A stretch of DNA of 64,000 nucleotides from Escherichia coli (GTDB lineage: Bacteria; Pseudomonadota; Gammaproteobacteria; Enterobacterales; Enterobacteriaceae): the NCBI RefSeq assembly GCF_003790525.1, contig NZ_CP033635.1, one strand, 5' to 3'. Positions 26,899 through 47,227 of the stretch are shown one piece after another; positions within the stretch are counted from its first letter, which is position 1; every line of letters begins with the position of its first letter. The position numbers were made by a program, and so were the translations under genes. The notes under the pieces were generated by a model. That model was not told where the DNA came from. It ran no database searches and saw nothing but the letters and a program-made list of their open reading frames with translations.

Positions 26899-27813
26899 TT
26901 ACTGCAGCAGGCTGGAAACCATGCTGGACATGCTGTTGGACTGTTTCAGCATGGTGATGCCGGTCTGCATCAGCACCTGCTGTTTAGTCATGTTGGACGC
27001 TTCCGTCGCGTAGTCGGTATCCATAATGTTACCGATAGCGACTTCGGTGTTGTCCTGCATACTGGTCAGGTTATTAGCGGTGTCGTTCAGACGGTTGATA
27101 GACGCCCCCAGCTTGGACTGGATCTGCGAAACATCATCCATCGCGGTAGAAATGCTGGTGATCATCTGGTTAGCCGAGCCAGACGCAGTCAGCTCAGTAC
27201 CGCCAGAAACGCCTGCGGTGCCAGTGGTGTCAGCCTGATCCGCACTGAAGGAGTTGCTGATAGCAGAAAGATCCGTCACCAGGGTATTCAGCTGGCTTGA
27301 AATATTCACGGTCATGGTGTCGGAAGATTCCGCGCCCACCTGGAAAGTTACTGCGCTCTGGAACAGACCGTCAGTACCGGTGTTGCTGGTACCGGAAACA
27401 CCGAACAGGTTGGTGCCGCCGTAAGTGGTGTTTTGCAGCATGTCAGACATCTGCTGACCCAGTTCATCGTATTCGTCCTGCATCGCCTGCAGATCGTCGT
27501 CGCTGTAGGTGCCGTTCGCTGCCTGAGTTGACAGGTCTTTCATACGACCCAGCACATCAGACATTTCGTCGAACATGCTGTCAGCGGTTTGCAGCATCGC
27601 GGTGGCATCATTGATGTTGCTCAGCGCCACACCCATACCGCTGGACTGTGCTGTCAGACGGTTAGCAATTTGTTTGCCTGCGGCGTCATCGGCAGAAGAG
27701 TTAATCCGGTTACCCGTTGCCAGGCGTTCCATAGATGTAGACAGAGAAGAGCTGCTTTTACTGATTGCATTAACGGCGGCCATTGAGGCGTTATTGGTGT
27801 TAATAGATAACAT
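26899..27813 (-). CDS. lafA: Lateral flagellin
   Basis: Translation from MLSINTNNASMAAVNAISKSS... has conserved flagellin N- and C-terminal domains (ends ...MSSMVSSLLQ); AGGAG RBS upstream of ATG 27813. Confidence 0.9.
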   Translation of the reverse strand: MLSINTNNASMAAVNAISKSSSSLSTSMERLATGNRINSSADDAAGKQIANRLTAQSSGMGVALSNINDATAMLQTADSMFDEMSDVLGRMKDLSTQAANGTYSDDDLQAMQDEYDELGQQMSDMLQNTTYGGTNLFGVSGTSNTGTDGLFQSAVTFQVGAESSDTMTVNISSQLNTLVTDLSAISNSFSADQADTTGTAGVSGGTELTASGSANQMITSISTAMDDVSQIQSKLGASINRLNDTANNLTSMQDNTEVAIGNIMDTDYATEASNMTKQQVLMQTGITMLKQSNSMSSMVSSLLQ

Positions 27814-41151: not shown

Positions 41152-42081
41152 ATGAGTTTTATTGAACGTTACGAACCGGAATACGTGCGCAATTTTATGA
41201 CGCAATATCCCGATTCGCCTTTGTACGTCCGCAAGGTCTGGAAGAATGAGATTCGCCAGAGCCTGGCATTGACCGATATTGAAAGTTGCAAAGCGGTGCT
41301 CAACGATGCCAGGGCCTTTGATTTACAGCTCACCTACCGCCCTGTGGAAGACAATGCCGCCGAGCTATCCGCGCGCGATGCGATAGTAAACCAGGCCATT
41401 TTGAGCACCCTTACGCTCCCCGATTTAACCCCGGAGCTTTCCCTGTATGCCGTCGGGATTTTGCTCTCCCGCGCCAGTAAAATGCCGGGCAGAGACGGAG
41501 ATATTCTTGCCCGCTTGACGACGCTGCCACAGGCGCTGGGGGATCATGCACAAAAAGGCACGCTACAGGCACAGTTCGCCCAACTCCCACCCGTGCCACA
41601 ACTGGCGCGCCAACTGGTGACGCTGCTCGGGAGTTTTGCGTTTGACTGGTCGATTTTGCCGGAAAGCCCGCGCAAAGCCTCGCTACCGTTGCAGGTGACT
41701 TTGCTGACGTTGCATGACGCCAACAGCGAAGCTTTGTTGCAACAGCAGCTTAAGGTGCAGTGGCAAACCACCTGGCAACAGCATTTTGCCGCCGCGCCGT
41801 GGATGATGCGCAACTGGCTGATTTACCGCGTTTATCACGACGTGATTGGGCAGGCAGACGGAGCAGATTATTGCCCGCTGGTGTGTGATTTTTATCTCAT
41901 CCGCACGTTAATCAGTTTATGGACGCTGGATGGTTCACCGCTGCGGAAGGAGGATATTTTCGCCCTTTTTGCGGTGTTTGAACGCTGGCGAGAGAGTGAA
42001 AATGCTGCGGCGATTCGCCAGCAGCTCCAGTCGTTATGTGCGGCAGAGCCGCTGCTGTCAGCATTTTCGCTGCTGACGTGA
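41152..42081 (+). CDS. Hypothetical protein within the Flag-2 cluster
   Basis: Open frame from MSFIERYEPEYVRNFMTQYPDSPLYVRK... with core-like composition; no recognisable motif. Confidence 0.55.
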   Translation: MSFIERYEPEYVRNFMTQYPDSPLYVRKVWKNEIRQSLALTDIESCKAVLNDARAFDLQLTYRPVEDNAAELSARDAIVNQAILSTLTLPDLTPELSLYAVGILLSRASKMPGRDGDILARLTTLPQALGDHAQKGTLQAQFAQLPPVPQLARQLVTLLGSFAFDWSILPESPRKASLPLQVTLLTLHDANSEALLQQQLKVQWQTTWQQHFAAAPWMMRNWLIYRVYHDVIGQADGADYCPLVCDFYLIRTLISLWTLDGSPLRKEDIFALFAVFERWRESENAAAIRQQLQSLCAAEPLLSAFSLLT

Positions 42082-42101
42082 GTCGCTCTGTGCGCGCTTT
42101 T

Positions 42102-42210
42102 CCCCTCCCCCTAACCCTCTCCCCAAAGGGGCGAGGGAACCGATCGAGCACGGTGTTAAAATCGGCGCTGGTTTTCTCCCTCTCCCTGTGGGAGAGGGTC
42201 GGGGTGAGGG
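42102..42210. repeat. GC-rich palindromic intergenic repeat, two inverted copies (boxC-like; family name uncertain)
   Basis: CCCCTCCCCCTAACCCTCTCCCCAAAGGGGCGAGGG and its inverted partner CTCCCTCTCCCTGTGGGAGAGGGTCGGGGTGAGGG; same motif recurs at 53408 and 63851. Confidence 0.5.
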
Positions 42211-42256
42211 CATCAGCACGCATATTCATCACATTCACCCATTAACTCACCCAAAC

Positions 42257-44704
42257 ACCATGCCAACACCAACCATTATCAAAACACTCGCCACCCAGCG
42301 CGAAAAACCGTCCGTCAGCGTCATCACGCCAACCTGGAACCGCAGCGCATTCCTGCCGTACCTGCTTTATATGTACCGCTATCAGGACTACCCGGCAGAC
42401 CGCCGCGAACTCATCATCCTCGACGATTCCCCTCAAAGCCATCAACACATCATCGACCGCCTGACCAATGGCACACCGGAAGCCTTCAACATCCGCTACA
42501 TCCATCACCCGGAAAAACTGCCGCTGGGCAAAAAACGCAATATGCTCAACGAACTGGCGCGCGGCGAATACATCCTCTGCATGGACGATGACGACTACTA
42601 CCCGGCAGATAAAATCTCTTACACCATCGCTATGATGCAAAAAAACCGGGCGCTCATCTCCGGTTCCGACCAGATCCCCATCTGGTACAGCCACATCAAT
42701 CGCATCTTTCAAAGCCGCAGCTTCGGCCCGCATAACATCCTCAACGGCACCTTTTGCTATCACCGTAACTACCTGAAAAAGCACCGCTACGATGACGATT
42801 GCAATTTAGGCGAAGAGAAAAGTTTCACCGACAATTTCAGCGTTAACCCGCTACAACTGCCCGGCGAGCGCACGATTTTGTGTATCTCGCACAGCCACAA
42901 CACCTTTGATAAAGACTTTATTCTCGGGGCCAGCACGCCAGTAAACGCGACGCTTACGGATATCGTCCGCGATCCGCTGCTCCGCAATGCTTATCTGAGT
43001 CTGCATAACGCCACTCATCATCAGGCGATCCAGTATCAGGCGATCGATCAGATCGTTCTGCTGAATCTGGATAAACGCCCGGATCGCTTACAGCAGATCC
43101 GTGAAGAACTCACATTGCTGCATATTCCTCCTGAGAAGATCACCCGCCTTGCCGCCAGTGAAAATGAAAACGGTCAACGGGGCCGCCAGCAATCACACTT
43201 GCAGGCACTGCGTCTGGCGCAACAACGCGGCTGGCAAAACTACCTGCTGCTGGAAGATGACGCGGTTATTCTCAAACAGGAGAAACATATTCAGGTGCTG
43301 AACGCGCTGCTGGCGAGCCTGGCGAAAATTCCCTGGCAGGTGATGATCCTCGGCGGCGAAATTTCGCAGGGAACGATGCTAAAAAGTTTGCCTGGGCTGG
43401 TGCACGCGCGGGACTGCCGCAAAGTGTGCGCTTATCTGGTGAACCGCCGCTACTACCCGCAGCTGGCGCAGCAGATGAACAACGATGAGCATTCGCTGGA
43501 AGACGGCTGGCAGCCGCTGCTGCGCACCGACAAATGGCTGGCCTGTTACCCGAGCCTTTGTTATCAGCGACCGGGCTTTAGTGATATCGAGAAAAAAGCG
43601 ACTGATAACATTAACCACTACTTCAATAAGTTACCCGTAGCCACCAAGCCATCTACATTACCTATCGCCGATACCATCGGCTTTTTTATGGAAACCTCAT
43701 TCCACTACGCGCTCTACCGCCCAATCATCACCGCCCTGCAGGCGCAGGGGCAGAGCTGTACGCTGGTGATCAATGACCGCGTATTTAAACCATTTCTGGA
43801 TGAAATGCTGGCGACGCTAAAAAGCATCGACGATCCGCAGCTCAAAGGAATGCGCTTATCTGAAATGCAGGCACACGGTCAGCGAGTAAAATGCCTGGTC
43901 AGCCCCTATCACACGCCTGTGCTCAGTGGCCTTTCCCCCCTGAACATTCGCGCCATGTACGGCTTAGCCAAAGAAACGTGGAACCACGCCGACTGGAACC
44001 GTTTTTATCAGCGCATTTTGTGTTACAGCCACTACAGCCAGCGGGCGCTGGCACATTTCGGCAGCGCAATAGTGGTCGGCAACCCGCGCTTCGACGCCTG
44101 GCATAACGCCACGTTCGACCGCGCGTTGCCGGAAAATATCAAACTGGACGAGCGTAAACCCACCGTACTCTACGCCCCAACGTTTGGCGCATTAAGCTCC
44201 CTGCCCCACTGGGCAGAAAAATTGGGGCGCTTAAGCGATGATGTGAACCTGATTTGCAAACTGCACCACGGCACCTGCTCGCGCCCGGAAGAAGCTGCAT
44301 CGCTGGCCCTGGCTCGCAGGCATTTAAAACAGCGCACCGACTCCGCCCGTCACACGCTGGCGCTGCTGGCAAAGGCCGATTACGTGCTGACCGATAACAG
44401 CGGCTTTATTTTCGATGCTATTCACGTTGATAAGCGGGTGATCCTGCTCGACTTTCCGGGCATGGCAACGTTGCTCGACGGTGAGAAAAGTTACTCCACG
44501 CCCGAAAGCGCCGACCAGCGAATCCGCGAAATATTGCCGGTGGCTCATGATGTTGCGGAACTGCGTTATTTGTTGTCAGAGGCGTTTGACTGGGGTGCGG
44601 TGCAGGCGCGGCTTACGAAGATTCGTCATCACTATTGCGATGCGTTTATGGATGGCAAGGCGGGAGAACGGGCAGCGATGGTGATTGTGGAGGCACTAGG
44701 GTAA
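42257..44704 (+). CDS. Multidomain glycosyltransferase: N-terminal GT-A family 2 domain, second GT-like domain, C-terminal TagF/TagB-type CDP-glycerol glycerophosphotransferase-like domain
   Basis: VSVITPTWNR...ILDDSP...CMDDDDYY (GT2 fold with DxD), ILLEDDAVIL in the middle, and C-terminal KPTVLYAPTFGALSS resembling the TagF-family LYAPTxR motif. Start at ATG 42257; the track start lies in the upstream repeat. Confidence 0.7.
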   Translation, partial: TMPTPTIIKTLATQREKPSVSVITPTWNRSAFLPYLLYMYRYQDYPADRRELIILDDSPQSHQHIIDRLTNGTPEAFNIRYIHHPEKLPLGKKRNMLNELARGEYILCMDDDDYYPADKISYTIAMMQKNRALISGSDQIPIWYSHINRIFQSRSFGPHNILNGTFCYHRNYLKKHRYDDDCNLGEEKSFTDNFSVNPLQLPGERTILCISHSHNTFDKDFILGASTPVNATLTDIVRDPLLRNAYLSLHNATHHQAIQYQAIDQIVLLNLDKRPDRLQQIREELTLLHIPPEKITRLAASENENGQRGRQQSHLQALRLAQQRGWQNYLLLEDDAVILKQEKHIQVLNALLASLAKIPWQVMILGGEISQGTMLKSLPGLVHARDCRKVCAYLVNRRYYPQLAQQMNNDEHSLEDGWQPLLRTDKWLACYPSLCYQRPGFSDIEKKATDNINHYFNKLPVATKPSTLPIADTIGFFMETSFHYALYRPIITALQAQGQSCTLVINDRVFKPFLDEMLATLKSIDDPQLKGMRLSEMQAHGQRVKCLVSPYHTPVLSGLSPLNIRAMYGLAKETWNHADWNRFYQRILCYSHYSQRALAHFGSAIVVGNPRFDAWHNATFDRALPENIKLDERKPTVLYAPTFGALSSLPHWAEKLGRLSDDVNLICKLHHGTCSRPEEAASLALARRHLKQRTDSARHTLALLAKADYVLTDNSGFIFDAIHVDKRVILLDFPGMATLLDGEKSYSTPESADQRIREILPVAHDVAELRYLLSEAFDWGAVQARLTKIRHHYCDAFMDGKAGERAAMVIVEALG

Positions 44705-44715
44705 AACGCGCAAGT

Positions 44716-44813
44716 GCCTGATGCGCTTCGCTTATCAGGCCTACGCGACCTTGCAATGTATTGAATTTGTAAGGATTTGTAGGCCGGTTAAGGCGTTTAC
44801 GCCGCATCCGGAA
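44716..44813. repeat. BIME (two REP palindromes in opposite orientation)
   Basis: GCCTGATGCGCTTCGCTTATCAGGCCTAC ... GTAGGCCGGTTAAGGCGTTTACGCCGCATCCGGAA. Confidence 0.6.
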
Positions 44814-45029
44814 CGAACAACGCACTTAACTACCCTCTGATTTCAAACTCATCGCTTTATGACTGGTGAATCGGTAAAAGTCGTAGATTGTGGGGGAGCG
44901 ATCTTTATGAATTCTGAAAAAACCTGAATCTTGCTAAACATATTGCTTATCATAAATATAGGTTACACACTATAACAATTATTGCGTAATTTAACATTTT
45001 GTTAAAATTGATAGGGCATAAACGATAAC

Positions 45030-45851
45030 ATGACTTATGATAAAAAAGTAACTTCCGGTACAACAAGCCAGAAACAAAACAACATTGTCACTCAAAAAAT
45101 ATCTCGCCCAAAGGAATTGTTTCTATTATTTTGGGTTGATGAGTCCGGTGATAGCCGACGTTCTATTTTTGAAGAAGCATGTCTGACGCGTTATTTCAAC
45201 ATCCTTTACTCCCCCGAGTATAAAAAAGAAACACAGATAGTTTACCATTTATCAATTAACACATTTAATCAAATCAAAGAAATATTAGAAATCTTTATAA
45301 ACAAGAATGGAGGTATAACCAAAGCAAAAGTTAAAGAAGTCAGTTTATTCTCACATGGGGGGCCAATTCATGGTCCTACAACCTCAGACTCTGTAAATAC
45401 ACCTTCCGTGCCTAAATACCCACAACAAATGGACATAATCGGAGGATGGGATTCAATTGATTTTAACTGGTCAAATAACGCTATGTTTGTTATGTATGGT
45501 TGTCGCACTAGTTATGCAAGTGATGATTCAGGACAAGGTTTTGCCAGTAAATTATCCCTATTAGATAATTTTAAGGACGTTAATGTCTGGGGACAAACAG
45601 AAAGTACTTATCCATCTTATTTCCCAGATATTAGGACAACTTCGATTATGAGGTCAATAAATATAGGTTGGTCTTTTTCACCAACATACATGGTTGCCAG
45701 TTCTGAAGGTCAAGGATGGGATGCCTTATTTCCGGATGATAAAAATCCACTAAAGTCTCTCCCTATGCAGTGTTATAATAATGGGAAATTGATTTTAACC
45801 TGCGATCAAAGCAGTTTTAATGATCACCGGAAGAATAAATCAAATGATTAG
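45030..45851 (+). CDS. Hypothetical protein, AT-rich insert inside Flag-2
   Basis: 273-aa ORF, markedly more AT-rich than neighbours; candidate His (SLFSHGGPIHG) and Cys (VMYGCRTSY) motifs noted but not assignable. Confidence 0.5.
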   Translation: MTYDKKVTSGTTSQKQNNIVTQKISRPKELFLLFWVDESGDSRRSIFEEACLTRYFNILYSPEYKKETQIVYHLSINTFNQIKEILEIFINKNGGITKAKVKEVSLFSHGGPIHGPTTSDSVNTPSVPKYPQQMDIIGGWDSIDFNWSNNAMFVMYGCRTSYASDDSGQGFASKLSLLDNFKDVNVWGQTESTYPSYFPDIRTTSIMRSINIGWSFSPTYMVASSEGQGWDALFPDDKNPLKSLPMQCYNNGKLILTCDQSSFNDHRKNKSND

Positions 45852-46383
45852 TATTATATTGAGAAGCTTGATTCTATTATTCATGATAATAGTGTATCCA
45901 GATTATAATAAAAACCTACCTGCCTTTGAAGTATATGGGGAAAATGACATACTTAAGGATATGGTTATTAATATGAAAACTTATAGTAACCATAGTAAGA
46001 AAAACTCTTCCCCAACAACTATAGTGCAAACCATCCTTTTTAAAGGGAATATACAGCAAGTTTTTGAAAGCAACGATATGGGTGCAGAGAGCTTCTTTTT
46101 TTCTTATAATAACAAGGTTGAAACGCTGGTAACAGACGCTTTCTTTTTGAATAGAAAATTAGACAAACTGCATGATGCAAATATTTTTGAAGTTATAAAG
46201 CATGGGGAAAATATCGTTATTAGATATTACAAATGCAAAATTGAATATATGAAAAAAGAAAAATCTATCGAAATAGAGATATCAACAAACAAAAACAGTT
46301 ATTTTAGCAAAAATGGAATAAAACAAAAAGACACAAATAAATATAACACATATTTCTTCAATTACTTTGAGGCTCAAAAATAA
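45820..46383 (+). CDS. Hypothetical protein with N-terminal hydrophobic segment, AT-rich insert inside Flag-2
   Basis: 187-aa ORF overlapping the end of the previous gene; N-terminus MISIILRSLILLFMIIVYP looks like a signal or membrane anchor. Start uncertain. Confidence 0.45.
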   Translation: MITGRINQMISIILRSLILLFMIIVYPDYNKNLPAFEVYGENDILKDMVINMKTYSNHSKKNSSPTTIVQTILFKGNIQQVFESNDMGAESFFFSYNNKVETLVTDAFFLNRKLDKLHDANIFEVIKHGENIVIRYYKCKIEYMKKEKSIEIEISTNKNSYFSKNGIKQKDTNKYNTYFFNYFEAQK

Positions 46384-46394
46384 ATTTTATTTTG

Positions 46395-46790
46395 TCATGC
46401 TTTCCCCCTAATCACCTCAATAATCCCCGTCGTCGACACCGACGGCGTGCGGGGGAAATACACTACCTCACAAATATACGCGAAGCTGTCAAACTTTCCT
46501 GCCCAGTCATCGCCCATCACTAAAATATCCGCACTGTACCCCCGCAGATACTCCGCTTTCTGCTCCAGCGACTCTTCCAGAAATACGCCATCCACGCACG
46601 CCAGCCCGGCGATGATCGCCATGCGGTCATCCTGAGGGTAAACCGGTGCCCTGCCCTTTTTGGCGATGTTCAGGGCATCGGACGATACGCCGACCAGCAG
46701 CCGTTCGCCCAGCGTGCGGGCGCGTTGTAAAAGGCGCAGATGACCGACATGAAACACATCGAAGGTGCCGAAGGTGATGACCGTTTTCAT
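46395..46790 (-). CDS. Cytidylyltransferase (glycerol-3-phosphate cytidylyltransferase TagD-like)
   Basis: 131 aa; MKTVITFGTFDVFHVGHLRLLQRAR carries the HxGH nucleotidyltransferase motif; start is 3 nt after the lfiJ stop. Confidence 0.8.
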   Translation of the reverse strand: MKTVITFGTFDVFHVGHLRLLQRARTLGERLLVGVSSDALNIAKKGRAPVYPQDDRMAIIAGLACVDGVFLEESLEQKAEYLRGYSADILVMGDDWAGKFDSFAYICEVVYFPRTPSVSTTGIIEVIRGKA

Positions 46791-46792
46791 GG

Positions 46793-47227
46793 CTACTCCG
46801 CTAACTTATGCCGCAGCCAGCACTGGACGGCGATGTCATCCACCGCTTTTTGCGCTTTCGCCGTGGCACTTTCTTGCTGCTCGCGGCGTTTGTCGTCCAA
46901 CGTCAGGGCCACCACTTTCTCTTCGCACGCCGCCGCCGTCAGGTTTTTCTGCATTCGCGTGGCTTTGATGTTAGCCAGCGTTTTTTCCTGCTCCTGCCAG
47001 GCGATCACCTTGCGCAAGGTGCCTTTGTAGTCGCTGACGTTTTTCAGCGATTCCACCGACGCTGCCGCGCCCGCAGATGTTTTCTCCACCAGGTAGCCTA
47101 ATGCTTTGATATTGTTGTCATAACCCGCACAAATCTGTTTTTGCTTTGCCAGCTCGACGGTTTTGTCTTTGACCGATTTATCCCGCAGGCGCTGCAACTG
47201 CGCCAGGGTGTCGATGATTTGTCGCAT
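46793..47227 (-). CDS. lfiJ: Flagellar export protein (FliJ homolog)
   Basis: 144-aa coiled-coil protein directly after the FliI homolog. Confidence 0.75.
   Translation of the reverse strand: MRQIIDTLAQLQRLRDKSVKDKTVELAKQKQICAGYDNNIKALGYLVEKTSAGAAASVESLKNVSDYKGTLRKVIAWQEQEKTLANIKATRMQKNLTAAACEEKVVALTLDDKRREQQESATAKAQKAVDDIAVQCWLRHKLAE

Follow-up and report, generated by a model that had tools for sequence, protein, structure and literature searches.

What are genes resembling those of wall teichoic acid synthesis doing inside a flagellar locus of Escherichia coli? The question is raised by the window, the whole 64,000-nucleotide stretch of contig NZ_CP033635.1 (assembly GCF_003790525.1) that we analysed. 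RefSeq annotates both genes concerned, one for a transferase and one for a TagD-like cytidylyltransferase, in the Flag-2 lateral flagellar locus. The transferase gene lies between lfgN/lafV and lfiJ, that is, inside this locus. The original prediction, made from the DNA alone, was that lateral flagellin or another flagellar component may be decorated with a glycerol-phosphate-containing glycan. We observed that this reading was supported by membership of the transferase in the TagF family, by TagD as the best relative of the cytidylyltransferase, by covariation of the two genes in their neighbourhoods and by the published biochemistry of TagF-like enzymes acting on flagellin. What we infer is the donor (CDP-glycerol; CDP, cytidine diphosphate), the acceptor (a glycan on LafA, the lateral flagellin), the order of the steps and the restriction to a single transfer.

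We propose, with about even confidence and arguing from sequence comparison and analogy, that the two genes form a cytoplasmic module for decorating the Flag-2 flagellin glycan, in which CDP-glycerol would be made and a glycerol-phosphate cap would be put on the glycan of LafA, the presumed acceptor protein. The TagD-like enzyme, co-transcribed with export-apparatus genes, would convert cytidine triphosphate (CTP) and sn-glycerol-3-phosphate, a common metabolite, into CDP-glycerol. The transferase, through a GT2 domain and then a GT25-like domain, would assemble an O-glycan of one or two sugars on Ser/Thr residues of LafA before export. Its TagF-like domain would then transfer glycerol-phosphate from CDP-glycerol onto a sugar hydroxyl, releasing cytidine monophosphate. 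The product would carry a phosphodiester-linked, negatively charged cap (+154 Da).

Domains of the transferase and its cytidylyltransferase partner

The C-terminal domain of the transferase (residues are numbered as in the 814-amino-acid (aa) RefSeq protein) gave a single-sequence match to Glyphos_transf (PF04464) over aa 602-728, corresponding to model positions 159-290. All 39 members of a diverse sample of relatives matched the same family at E<=0.001, the best at 2.6e-17. A profile of these 39 sequences retrieved, from the PDB, Cps3D (1.8e-16, the best match), Staphylococcus epidermidis TagF (4e-13) and S. aureus TarL (2.5e-9). In the AlphaFold model the domain is predicted to adopt a GT-B fold, closest to TagF and TarL. 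The TagF resemblance claimed at the outset was thus found by single sequence, family profile and fold alike. The Pfam families named in the original prediction were also matched in the two proteins: Glycos_transf_2 (E 9.1e-18), Glyphos_transf (E 3.7e-5) and CTP_transf_like (E 1.9e-19). Every sequence feature named there was present, at a level well above chance. An exhaustive search with aa ~480-814, clustered at 50% identity, gave 791 cluster representatives at E<=1e-3.

The motifs of the C-terminal domain are R-A-M-Y567-G, G607-N-P-R-F-D, KPTVLYAPTFG (aa 633-643), K667-L-H669-H and T711-D-N-S-G. KPTVLYAPTFG aligns with KKVIMYAPTWR of TagF. H669 aligns with H584 of TagF (R-M-H584-Y), the donor-side invariant histidine of TagF-like enzymes (H433 in TarL), and was invariant in all 39 relatives.

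The AlphaFold model showed two GT-A-type domains followed by the GT-B domain, with a mean pLDDT of 75 (85-95 in the C-terminal third, poor at aa ~135-260). The original prediction had described an 838-aa protein joining a GT2 and a TagF-like domain; the two domains, the DxD motifs and KPTVLYAPTFG were borne out, while the length is 814 aa and the domain between them had been overlooked. The GT2-type domain carries the motifs D55-D-S and D109-D-D-D, which are invariant in an alignment of 22 full-length homologs (A1), every one of which matched Glycos_transf_2. Its PDB matches were PglI-type 9jma (E 2.2e-9) and TarS 5tz8, and it is predicted to be the first sugar transferase.

The middle domain is predicted to be the second. 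Its E332-D-D was invariant in the same alignment. Pfam Glyco_transf_25 found no match in the transferase itself; among the 22 homologs it matched one at E<=0.001 and two at E<=0.1, a Plesiomonas homolog being recognised, and PF01755 was precomputed for two homologs (P0084 and P0086). The best Foldseek matches of the whole model were to the human collagen galactosyltransferase COLGALT1 (E ~1e-12), which belongs to GT25 and has its GT-A domains in tandem. COLGALT1 is a protein-modifying glycosyltransferase and the best fold match for the N-terminal half with its two GT-A domains; the likeness is one of fold and DxD-type motif only, since sequence identity is ~14% and the COLGALT1 acceptor is hydroxylysine. 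Since D55-D-S, D109-D-D and E332-D-D are invariant, both GT-A domains look catalytically equipped. The transferase has no hydrophobic segment, which is consistent with a soluble cytoplasmic enzyme acting before export. One homolog (P0039) is named by NCBI 'bifunctional glycosyltransferase family 2 protein/CDP-glycerol:glycerophosphate glycerophosphotransferase'.

We also evaluated the 131-aa TagD-like protein, which belongs to the HxGH family (H14-V-G-H17). The original prediction had it right as a TagD-type gene after lfiJ in the export-apparatus operon; between the lfiJ stop codon and its ATG, both on one strand, there are 2 nucleotides (nt) instead of 3. The best solved relative was Bacillus subtilis TagD (1coz; E 2.7e-32, 114.8 bits, full length; 47% identity over 129 aa). 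S. aureus TarD came next (2b7l, 4.8e-27), and ethanolamine-phosphate cytidylyltransferase was far behind (4.1e-16, 62.5 bits). More than 30 Flag-2 orthologs conserve H14xGH17, the K-K-x-R cluster (K45-x-R47), GDDW and R113-T-P-S-[VI]-S-T-T. TagD binds CTP through the motifs HxGH and RTxGISTT, in which His14, His17 and Arg113 are indispensable, and its Lys44 and Lys46 contact the CDP-glycerol phosphates (PMC8262930). For the cluster K44-K45-G-R47, MAFFT pairs K45 and R47 with TagD K44 and K46, while BLAST and HMMER pair K44 with K44 and G46 with K46. From these comparisons, the TagD-like protein is predicted to be a CTP:sn-glycerol-3-phosphate cytidylyltransferase.

Linkage within flagellar loci and comparison with known systems

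We scanned for related loci with a 12-sequence alignment, taking one genome per species, and searched the resulting 52 loci by tblastn with the window proteins. A TagD-like gene was present within 10 kb of the TagF-like domain in 26 of the 27 species-level loci that have flanking lfiJ/lfiI. Four species loci had no TagD despite adequate flank (L021, L022, L036 and L028), and the first three of these also lack FliJ/FliI in the flank. The annotation of L021 and L036 places fimbrial, EAL or eptB genes there instead, and L022 has the match pattern of L021. The Flag-2 segment of L022 ('Chryseobacterium sp. 18061') shows nearly the same match pattern and coordinates as that of Citrobacter sp. 18056 (L021); its organism label is probably wrong, or the assembly contaminated.

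The two genes also stay together where the fusion is split. Pseudescherichia vulneris and several Enterobacter have a 357-aa TagF-like gene directly followed by a TagD-like gene, with a 459-aa two-domain glycosyltransferase after fliJ, and in L037-L039 the TagF-like gene is likewise immediately followed by the TagD-like gene. No TagD was found where the homolog has no third domain or carries a KpsC/S-like Capsule_synth domain. In one Citrobacter-type Flag-2 locus the two N-terminal domains are fused to such a domain (L059 9001-11628). In another they stand alone as a 473-aa protein (L060 9001-10422), accompanied by extra GT9/GT2/GT25 and methyltransferase genes. From these arrangements the third domain looks like an exchangeable capping module.

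When we examined more distant relatives, the flagellar setting recurred with other partner genes. The second flagellar locus of Burkholderia ubonensis (L004 8769-13332) has consecutive genes for a GT2, a TagF-like protein of 559 aa, a choline-kinase/APH-like protein and NTP_transf_3, a set that hints at a flagellin glycan decorated with a phosphocholine-like group or another phospho-alcohol. In Heyndrickxia ginsengihumi (L041 7080-11068) a 1026-aa protein combining GT2 (SunS-like), TPR and TagF-like domains is encoded directly after the flagellin gene, with fliD further downstream. Five other Bacillaceae loci (L040, L042-L045) are similarly arranged, with no TagD-like gene within 10 kb. Together with the Flag-2 loci, these loci indicate that the clade is repeatedly tied to flagellin while the donor module varies. 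A broader proposal, which we put forward only tentatively, is that the C-terminal domain belongs to a phylum-spanning TagF-like clade (~790 representatives at 50% identity) with an invariant Tyr apparently in place of the acceptor-side His, dedicated to flagellin glycans and not to envelope polymers, and served by interchangeable CDP-donor modules (TagD-, choline-kinase/LicC- and Fta-type), and that it makes in E. coli the first glycerol-phosphate flagellin. In E. coli the filament could even carry short chains of poly(glycerol-phosphate) that resemble teichoic acid, on a Gram-negative flagellum.

Two characterised flagellin systems offer the closest precedents. In C. difficile the TagF-like enzyme FtaD (CD0244) transfers phospho-N-methylthreonine from CDP-N-methylthreonine onto the O-GlcNAc of a FliC peptide in vitro (bioRxiv 10.64898/2026.02.12.704994). 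This Type A system (FtaA-D = CD0241-CD0244, plus CD0240) resembles that of E. coli in encoding a TagF-like enzyme in the flagellar locus; it differs in having separate proteins, CDP-N-methylthreonine as donor and a cytidylyltransferase of another fold family. A search from a Clostridium taeniosporum relative returned five proteins, none from C. difficile. In the b-type system of P. aeruginosa PAO1 (PA1088-PA1091), PA1091 (FgtA) fuses GT2 and phosphotransferase activities (PMC11833859). By description, it is like the E. coli enzyme in joining a GT2 and a TagF-like phosphotransferase in one polypeptide. A dedicated cytidylyltransferase for the CDP-donor is shared as well, and the product is a flagellin O-glycan with a phosphodiester-linked group (PMC11833859; bioRxiv 10.64898/2026.02.12.704994). 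The PAO1 donor, however, is CDP-N,N-dimethylthreonine, made through a ThrH-like phosphotransferase, an NTP_transferase-family cytidylyltransferase and a methyltransferase, whereas E. coli has a single TagD-type (HxGH) enzyme, no precursor genes and an extra GT25-like domain. Among the cluster names of the long relatives there was no Pseudomonas entry.

Wall teichoic acid synthesis shares with the E. coli pair a TagD at 47% identity and, in TagF/TarL, the Glyphos_transf family, the GT-B fold, YAPT and the H584 equivalent. In E. coli, however, there is no lipid-linked acceptor, no membrane-binding helix and no polymerase N-terminal domain, H444/H300 is apparently an invariant Tyr, two glycosyltransferase domains precede the TagF-like domain in one protein, and both genes belong to a flagellar locus. 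Cps3D of A. pleuropneumoniae and Bcs3 of H. influenzae are Gram-negative multi-enzyme proteins with TagF-like domains and a TagD-type supply (PMC8262930). Both make capsule backbone polymers on lipid primers, and their glycerol-3-phosphate cytidylyltransferases are ~70% identical to TagD, in contrast to the flagellar context and more diverged cytidylyltransferase of E. coli.

The locus itself has been described before: it is variable region VR1 in the 2020 survey by De Maayer, Pillay and Coutinho (PMC6993521). Their catalogue of VR1 includes 'GT2-1', with a mean length of 828 aa and found in 222 strains of 8 genera, and 'TagD', of 133 aa and found in 235 strains, and they propose teichoic-acid-type components in the flag-2 flagellin glycan (PMC6993521). 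Both the genes and the basic idea are therefore already in print (PMC6993521) and largely anticipate the prediction. In that work GT2-1 was annotated only as GT2 (pfam00535) and TagB-like proteins were counted separately; it describes neither the fusion to TagF-like and GT25-like domains nor the way these genes covary with TagD nor the link to FtaD and PA1091. To this we add that the transferase has three domains, that TagD-like genes covary with the TagF-like domain, that the third domain is swapped between loci, that the system can be connected to the proven FtaD/PA1091 chemistry, and that Tyr apparently takes the place of His in the active site.

Active site, donor and target under alternative readings

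Several observations weigh against the glycerol-phosphate account, and we give each beside the alternative on which it bears. The first concerns the acceptor side of the active site. TagF-like enzymes reportedly have two invariant, essential histidines, and the acceptor-side base (H444 in TagF, H300 in TarL) follows a stacking Trp (W443/W299); it is essential in TagB, TagF and TarL (PMC10901376). The W-H-G motif was absent from the transferase and from the 150 best representatives, so a counterpart of this His appears to be lacking. We observed an invariant x-Y-G-x-x-K motif (Y567; window 43958-43960) after a predicted strand, 40 residues before G-N-P-R-F-D, and its spacing fits TagF once the TagF insertion at 452-481 (PMC10901376) is discounted. 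Y567 was invariant across 39 diverse members and in nearly all of the 150 best representatives. For the N-terminal half of the domain a separate profile found no sequence-detectable solved relative, so that only motif shape and spacing suggest the equivalence of Y567 and H444. By this comparison, an invariant Tyr appears to replace the canonical acceptor-side catalytic His across the clade of ~790 representatives.

The apparent absence of the catalytic His (PMC10901376) would also be expected if the domain were a catalytically dead TagF-like fold kept for binding or scaffolding, with the TagD-like enzyme serving another pathway. We regard this as very improbable, since the invariance of the Tyr points to purifying selection on the active site and not to decay, and since the donor-side motifs YAPT, K-x-H669 and TD-x-SG are conserved and the TagD-like gene co-occurs tightly with the domain.

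The second group of observations concerns the donor. TIGR01518, the NCBIfam model for glycerol-3-phosphate cytidylyltransferase, scored 114 bits against the TagD-like protein, below its equivalog cut-off of 165.4. Characterised Gram-negative enzymes are ~70% identical to TagD (PMC8262930), and the 47% here marks a more diverged protein. TagD W74 is replaced, and RTEGISTT of TagD reads RTPSVSTT (R113, T114 and S118-T-T kept, G116 changed to Ser and I117 to Val). These features would fit an enzyme of the same architecture and target that uses another CDP-activated donor, such as CDP-ethanolamine, CDP-2-glycerol or a CDP-amino acid, so that the cap would be something other than sn-3 glycerol-phosphate. 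Ethanolamine- and choline-phosphate enzymes belong to the same cytidylyltransferase family (PMC8262930), and flagellar TagF-like relatives use CDP-N-methylthreonine (bioRxiv 10.64898/2026.02.12.704994) or adjoin choline-kinase-like or NTP-transferase genes, from which donor choice in the clade looks plastic.

We nevertheless consider another donor unlikely. TagD is ahead of ethanolamine-phosphate cytidylyltransferase by 50 bits, and TIGR01518 is still the best NCBIfam model by 40 bits, the next being rfaE domain II (73.7 bits). The gene content argues in the same direction. The minimal VR1, in E. coli O111 FWSEC0005, is reduced to lafV and the genes for the transferase and the TagD-like enzyme, the last two having convergent ends 117 nt apart. 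It contains no kinase or other precursor enzyme, no Fta-type donor module (ThrH-like, NTP_transferase-type, N-methyltransferase) and no gene for an unusual phospho-alcohol. The phospho-alcohol must therefore be a housekeeping metabolite, and this, together with the analogy to FtaD and PA1091, is why we propose CDP-glycerol.

A further question is whether one glycerol-phosphate would be added or many. The closest solved relatives, TagF, TarL, Cps3D and Bcs3, are polymerases, and teichoic-acid glycopolymers have been proposed as part of the flag-2 flagellin glycan (PMC6993521). The TagF-like domain might accordingly build a teichoic-acid-like poly(glycerol-phosphate) chain on the flagellin glycan, in line with De Maayer et al.; we rate this as quite unlikely. 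The flagellar relatives FtaD and PA1091 add a single group (bioRxiv 10.64898/2026.02.12.704994; PMC11833859). For TagF-like polymerases an additional N-terminal domain and helices that bind the membrane are reported (PMC10901376), in place of which we found a glycosyltransferase fusion free of hydrophobic segments. The route of export also matters here. Flagellin is exported unfolded through a narrow type III channel. Such a channel would probably not suit long polyanionic chains, and we favour a single transfer because of this constraint and the precedent of FtaD and PA1091.

The third group concerns the target and whether the module is active. LafA was undetected, and Flag-2 motility absent, in E. 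coli sequence type 131 (ST131) strain EC958 under laboratory conditions (PMC4637896). Flag-2 is considered non-functional in some Enterobacteriaceae, according to a statement quoted in PMC4481668, and the TagD-like gene sits in an early (export apparatus) operon, not beside lafA. The enzymes could then act on the hook, the cap or a cell-envelope glycan instead of the filament, or the module could be silent within a cryptic Flag-2. This is improbable in our view, since the Flag-2 genes of the source strain are all annotated as intact and the transferase gene is full-length, at 92-100% identity, in 1277 of 5426 complete E. coli genomes, its protein being found across at least eight genera (PMC6993521). 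The Bacillaceae relatives, moreover, adjoin flagellin itself, and the adjoining lafV is a homolog of a flagellin-specific methylase.

Linkage and literature supply the remaining points against the glycerol-phosphate account. One intact locus (L028) encodes the fusion protein and has flanking lfiJ/lfiI, with no TagD within 10 kb; it is the sole true exception to the linkage of the two genes. In the Flag-2 VR1 of Serratia quinivorans (L061 12767-13755) the TagF-like gene is in pieces of 249 and 93 aa with no TagD nearby, and this may be a decaying copy. Our literature search found no report of glycerol-phosphate on any flagellin.

If glycerol-phosphate capping of LafA holds, LafA would become the first flagellin with a demonstrated glycerol-phosphate group, and the principle of a CDP-donor with a TagF-like transferase, recently proven in C. 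difficile and P. aeruginosa, would also apply in roughly one in four complete E. coli genomes, with ST131 and other clinical lineages among them. If the filament surface bore such a charged group, its antigenicity, its binding by phages or antibodies and the behaviour of the filament could change. For the enzymology of TagF-like proteins, the point of interest is the apparent replacement of His by Tyr on the acceptor side. The practical weight is limited, because the Flag-2 flagellin was undetected in EC958, the only E. coli strain examined for it, and because the gene content and idea had been published.

Features of the locus, interspersed cargo and repeats

The coordinates of the two genes, their domains and the neighbouring features are collected in the table. 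RefSeq gives the gene order as lfgA-lfgM-lfgN, lafV (FliB-like), 'glycosyltransferase' and two hypothetical genes, and, on the opposite strand, an 'adenylyltransferase/cytidyltransferase family protein' as the last gene of the lfiE-J operon, directly behind fliJ/lfiJ. The 6.3-kb stretch around both genes is 100% identical to the chromosome of E. coli SMS-3-5. LafV (the name used in PMC6993521) scored 39 bits against the FliB model NF038110, under its cut-off of 85, and Pfam FliB_C was recognised in its orthologs; by these matches lafV is predicted to be the second flagellin-modification gene of VR1.

Table. Positions in the window of the two genes, their domains and neighbouring features
Feature	Position	Strand	Basis
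Transferase gene, 814 aa, 'GT2-1' of De Maayer 2020	42260..44704	+	RefSeq WP_012311637.1, Pfam, AlphaFold
N-terminal GT2-type GT-A domain; Pfam core aa 20-134	42311..43024	+	Glycos_transf_2 E 9.1e-18
Middle GT25-like GT-A domain, aa ~263-430	43046..43549	+	Invariant E332-D-D, fold
C-terminal TagF-like CDP-alcohol phosphotransferase domain, aa ~472-814	43673..44701	+	Pfam Glyphos_transf, profile, fold
TagD-like cytidylyltransferase gene, 131 aa, last of lfiE-J export-apparatus operon	46395..46790	-	Pfam CTP_transf_like
lfiJ (FliJ homolog), immediately upstream of TagD-like gene, 2-nt spacer	46793..47227	-	TIGR02473 FliJ 57 bits, above cut-off; RefSeq
lafV, FliB-like predicted flagellin lysine N-methylase, upstream of transferase gene	41152..42081	+	NF038110
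lafA, lateral flagellin, 304 aa, 26% Ser+Thr	26899..27813	-	RefSeq 'lateral flagellin LafA', translation/composition
Low-GC cargo, outside module, two hypothetical open reading frames	44900..46394		GC 0.32 vs 0.55 in neighbours

The original prediction had treated 42257-46790 as one module. This was not borne out, since 44900-46394 is low-GC cargo with a separate distribution: it was present in 127 of 5426 complete E. coli genomes and in none of the 52 species-level loci. Its two open reading frames (ORFs) overlap (45030-45851, 273 aa; 45844-46383, 179 aa with a hydrophobic N-terminus). Neither had an NCBIfam, PHROG, PADLOC or PDB match, and the 273-aa ORF gave a weak DUF4347 match (E 6e-4). 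With this as the only match and with a patchy distribution, the ORFs at 45030-46383 were rejected as members of the module. ST131 ZH193 has a different cargo at the same intergenic spot and O111 FWSEC0005 has none; the varying cargo between the transferase and TagD-like genes points to an insertion hotspot.

Directly after the transferase stop codon, at 44705-44830, we observed REP/BIME-type palindromic units (GCCTGATGCG...CTTATCAGGCCTAC, TAGGCCGG...GCATCCGG). The first ~120-210 nt of this region match unannotated DNA in more than 5000 E. coli genomes at ~84% identity.

A G/C-rich imperfect palindrome (CCCCTCCCCCTAACCCTCTCCCC ... CCCTCTCCCTGTGGGAGAGGGTCGGGGTGAGGGC), present as a single copy in the window, lies at 42100-42215 between lafV and the transferase gene, and it accounts for the spurious 838-aa ORF. 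This ORF is a mechanical one that begins at a GTG at 42188, and its first 24 codons cross the palindromic repeat. We rejected it as a start since the extension is absent from homologs, whose N-termini lie near the annotated ATG at 42260, which gives 814 aa; the boundary of 42257 given earlier is one codon upstream of that ATG. The gap between lafV and the transferase gene is 46 nt in ZH193, as against 178 nt here and in O111, and from this difference the palindrome looks like a small inserted repeat.

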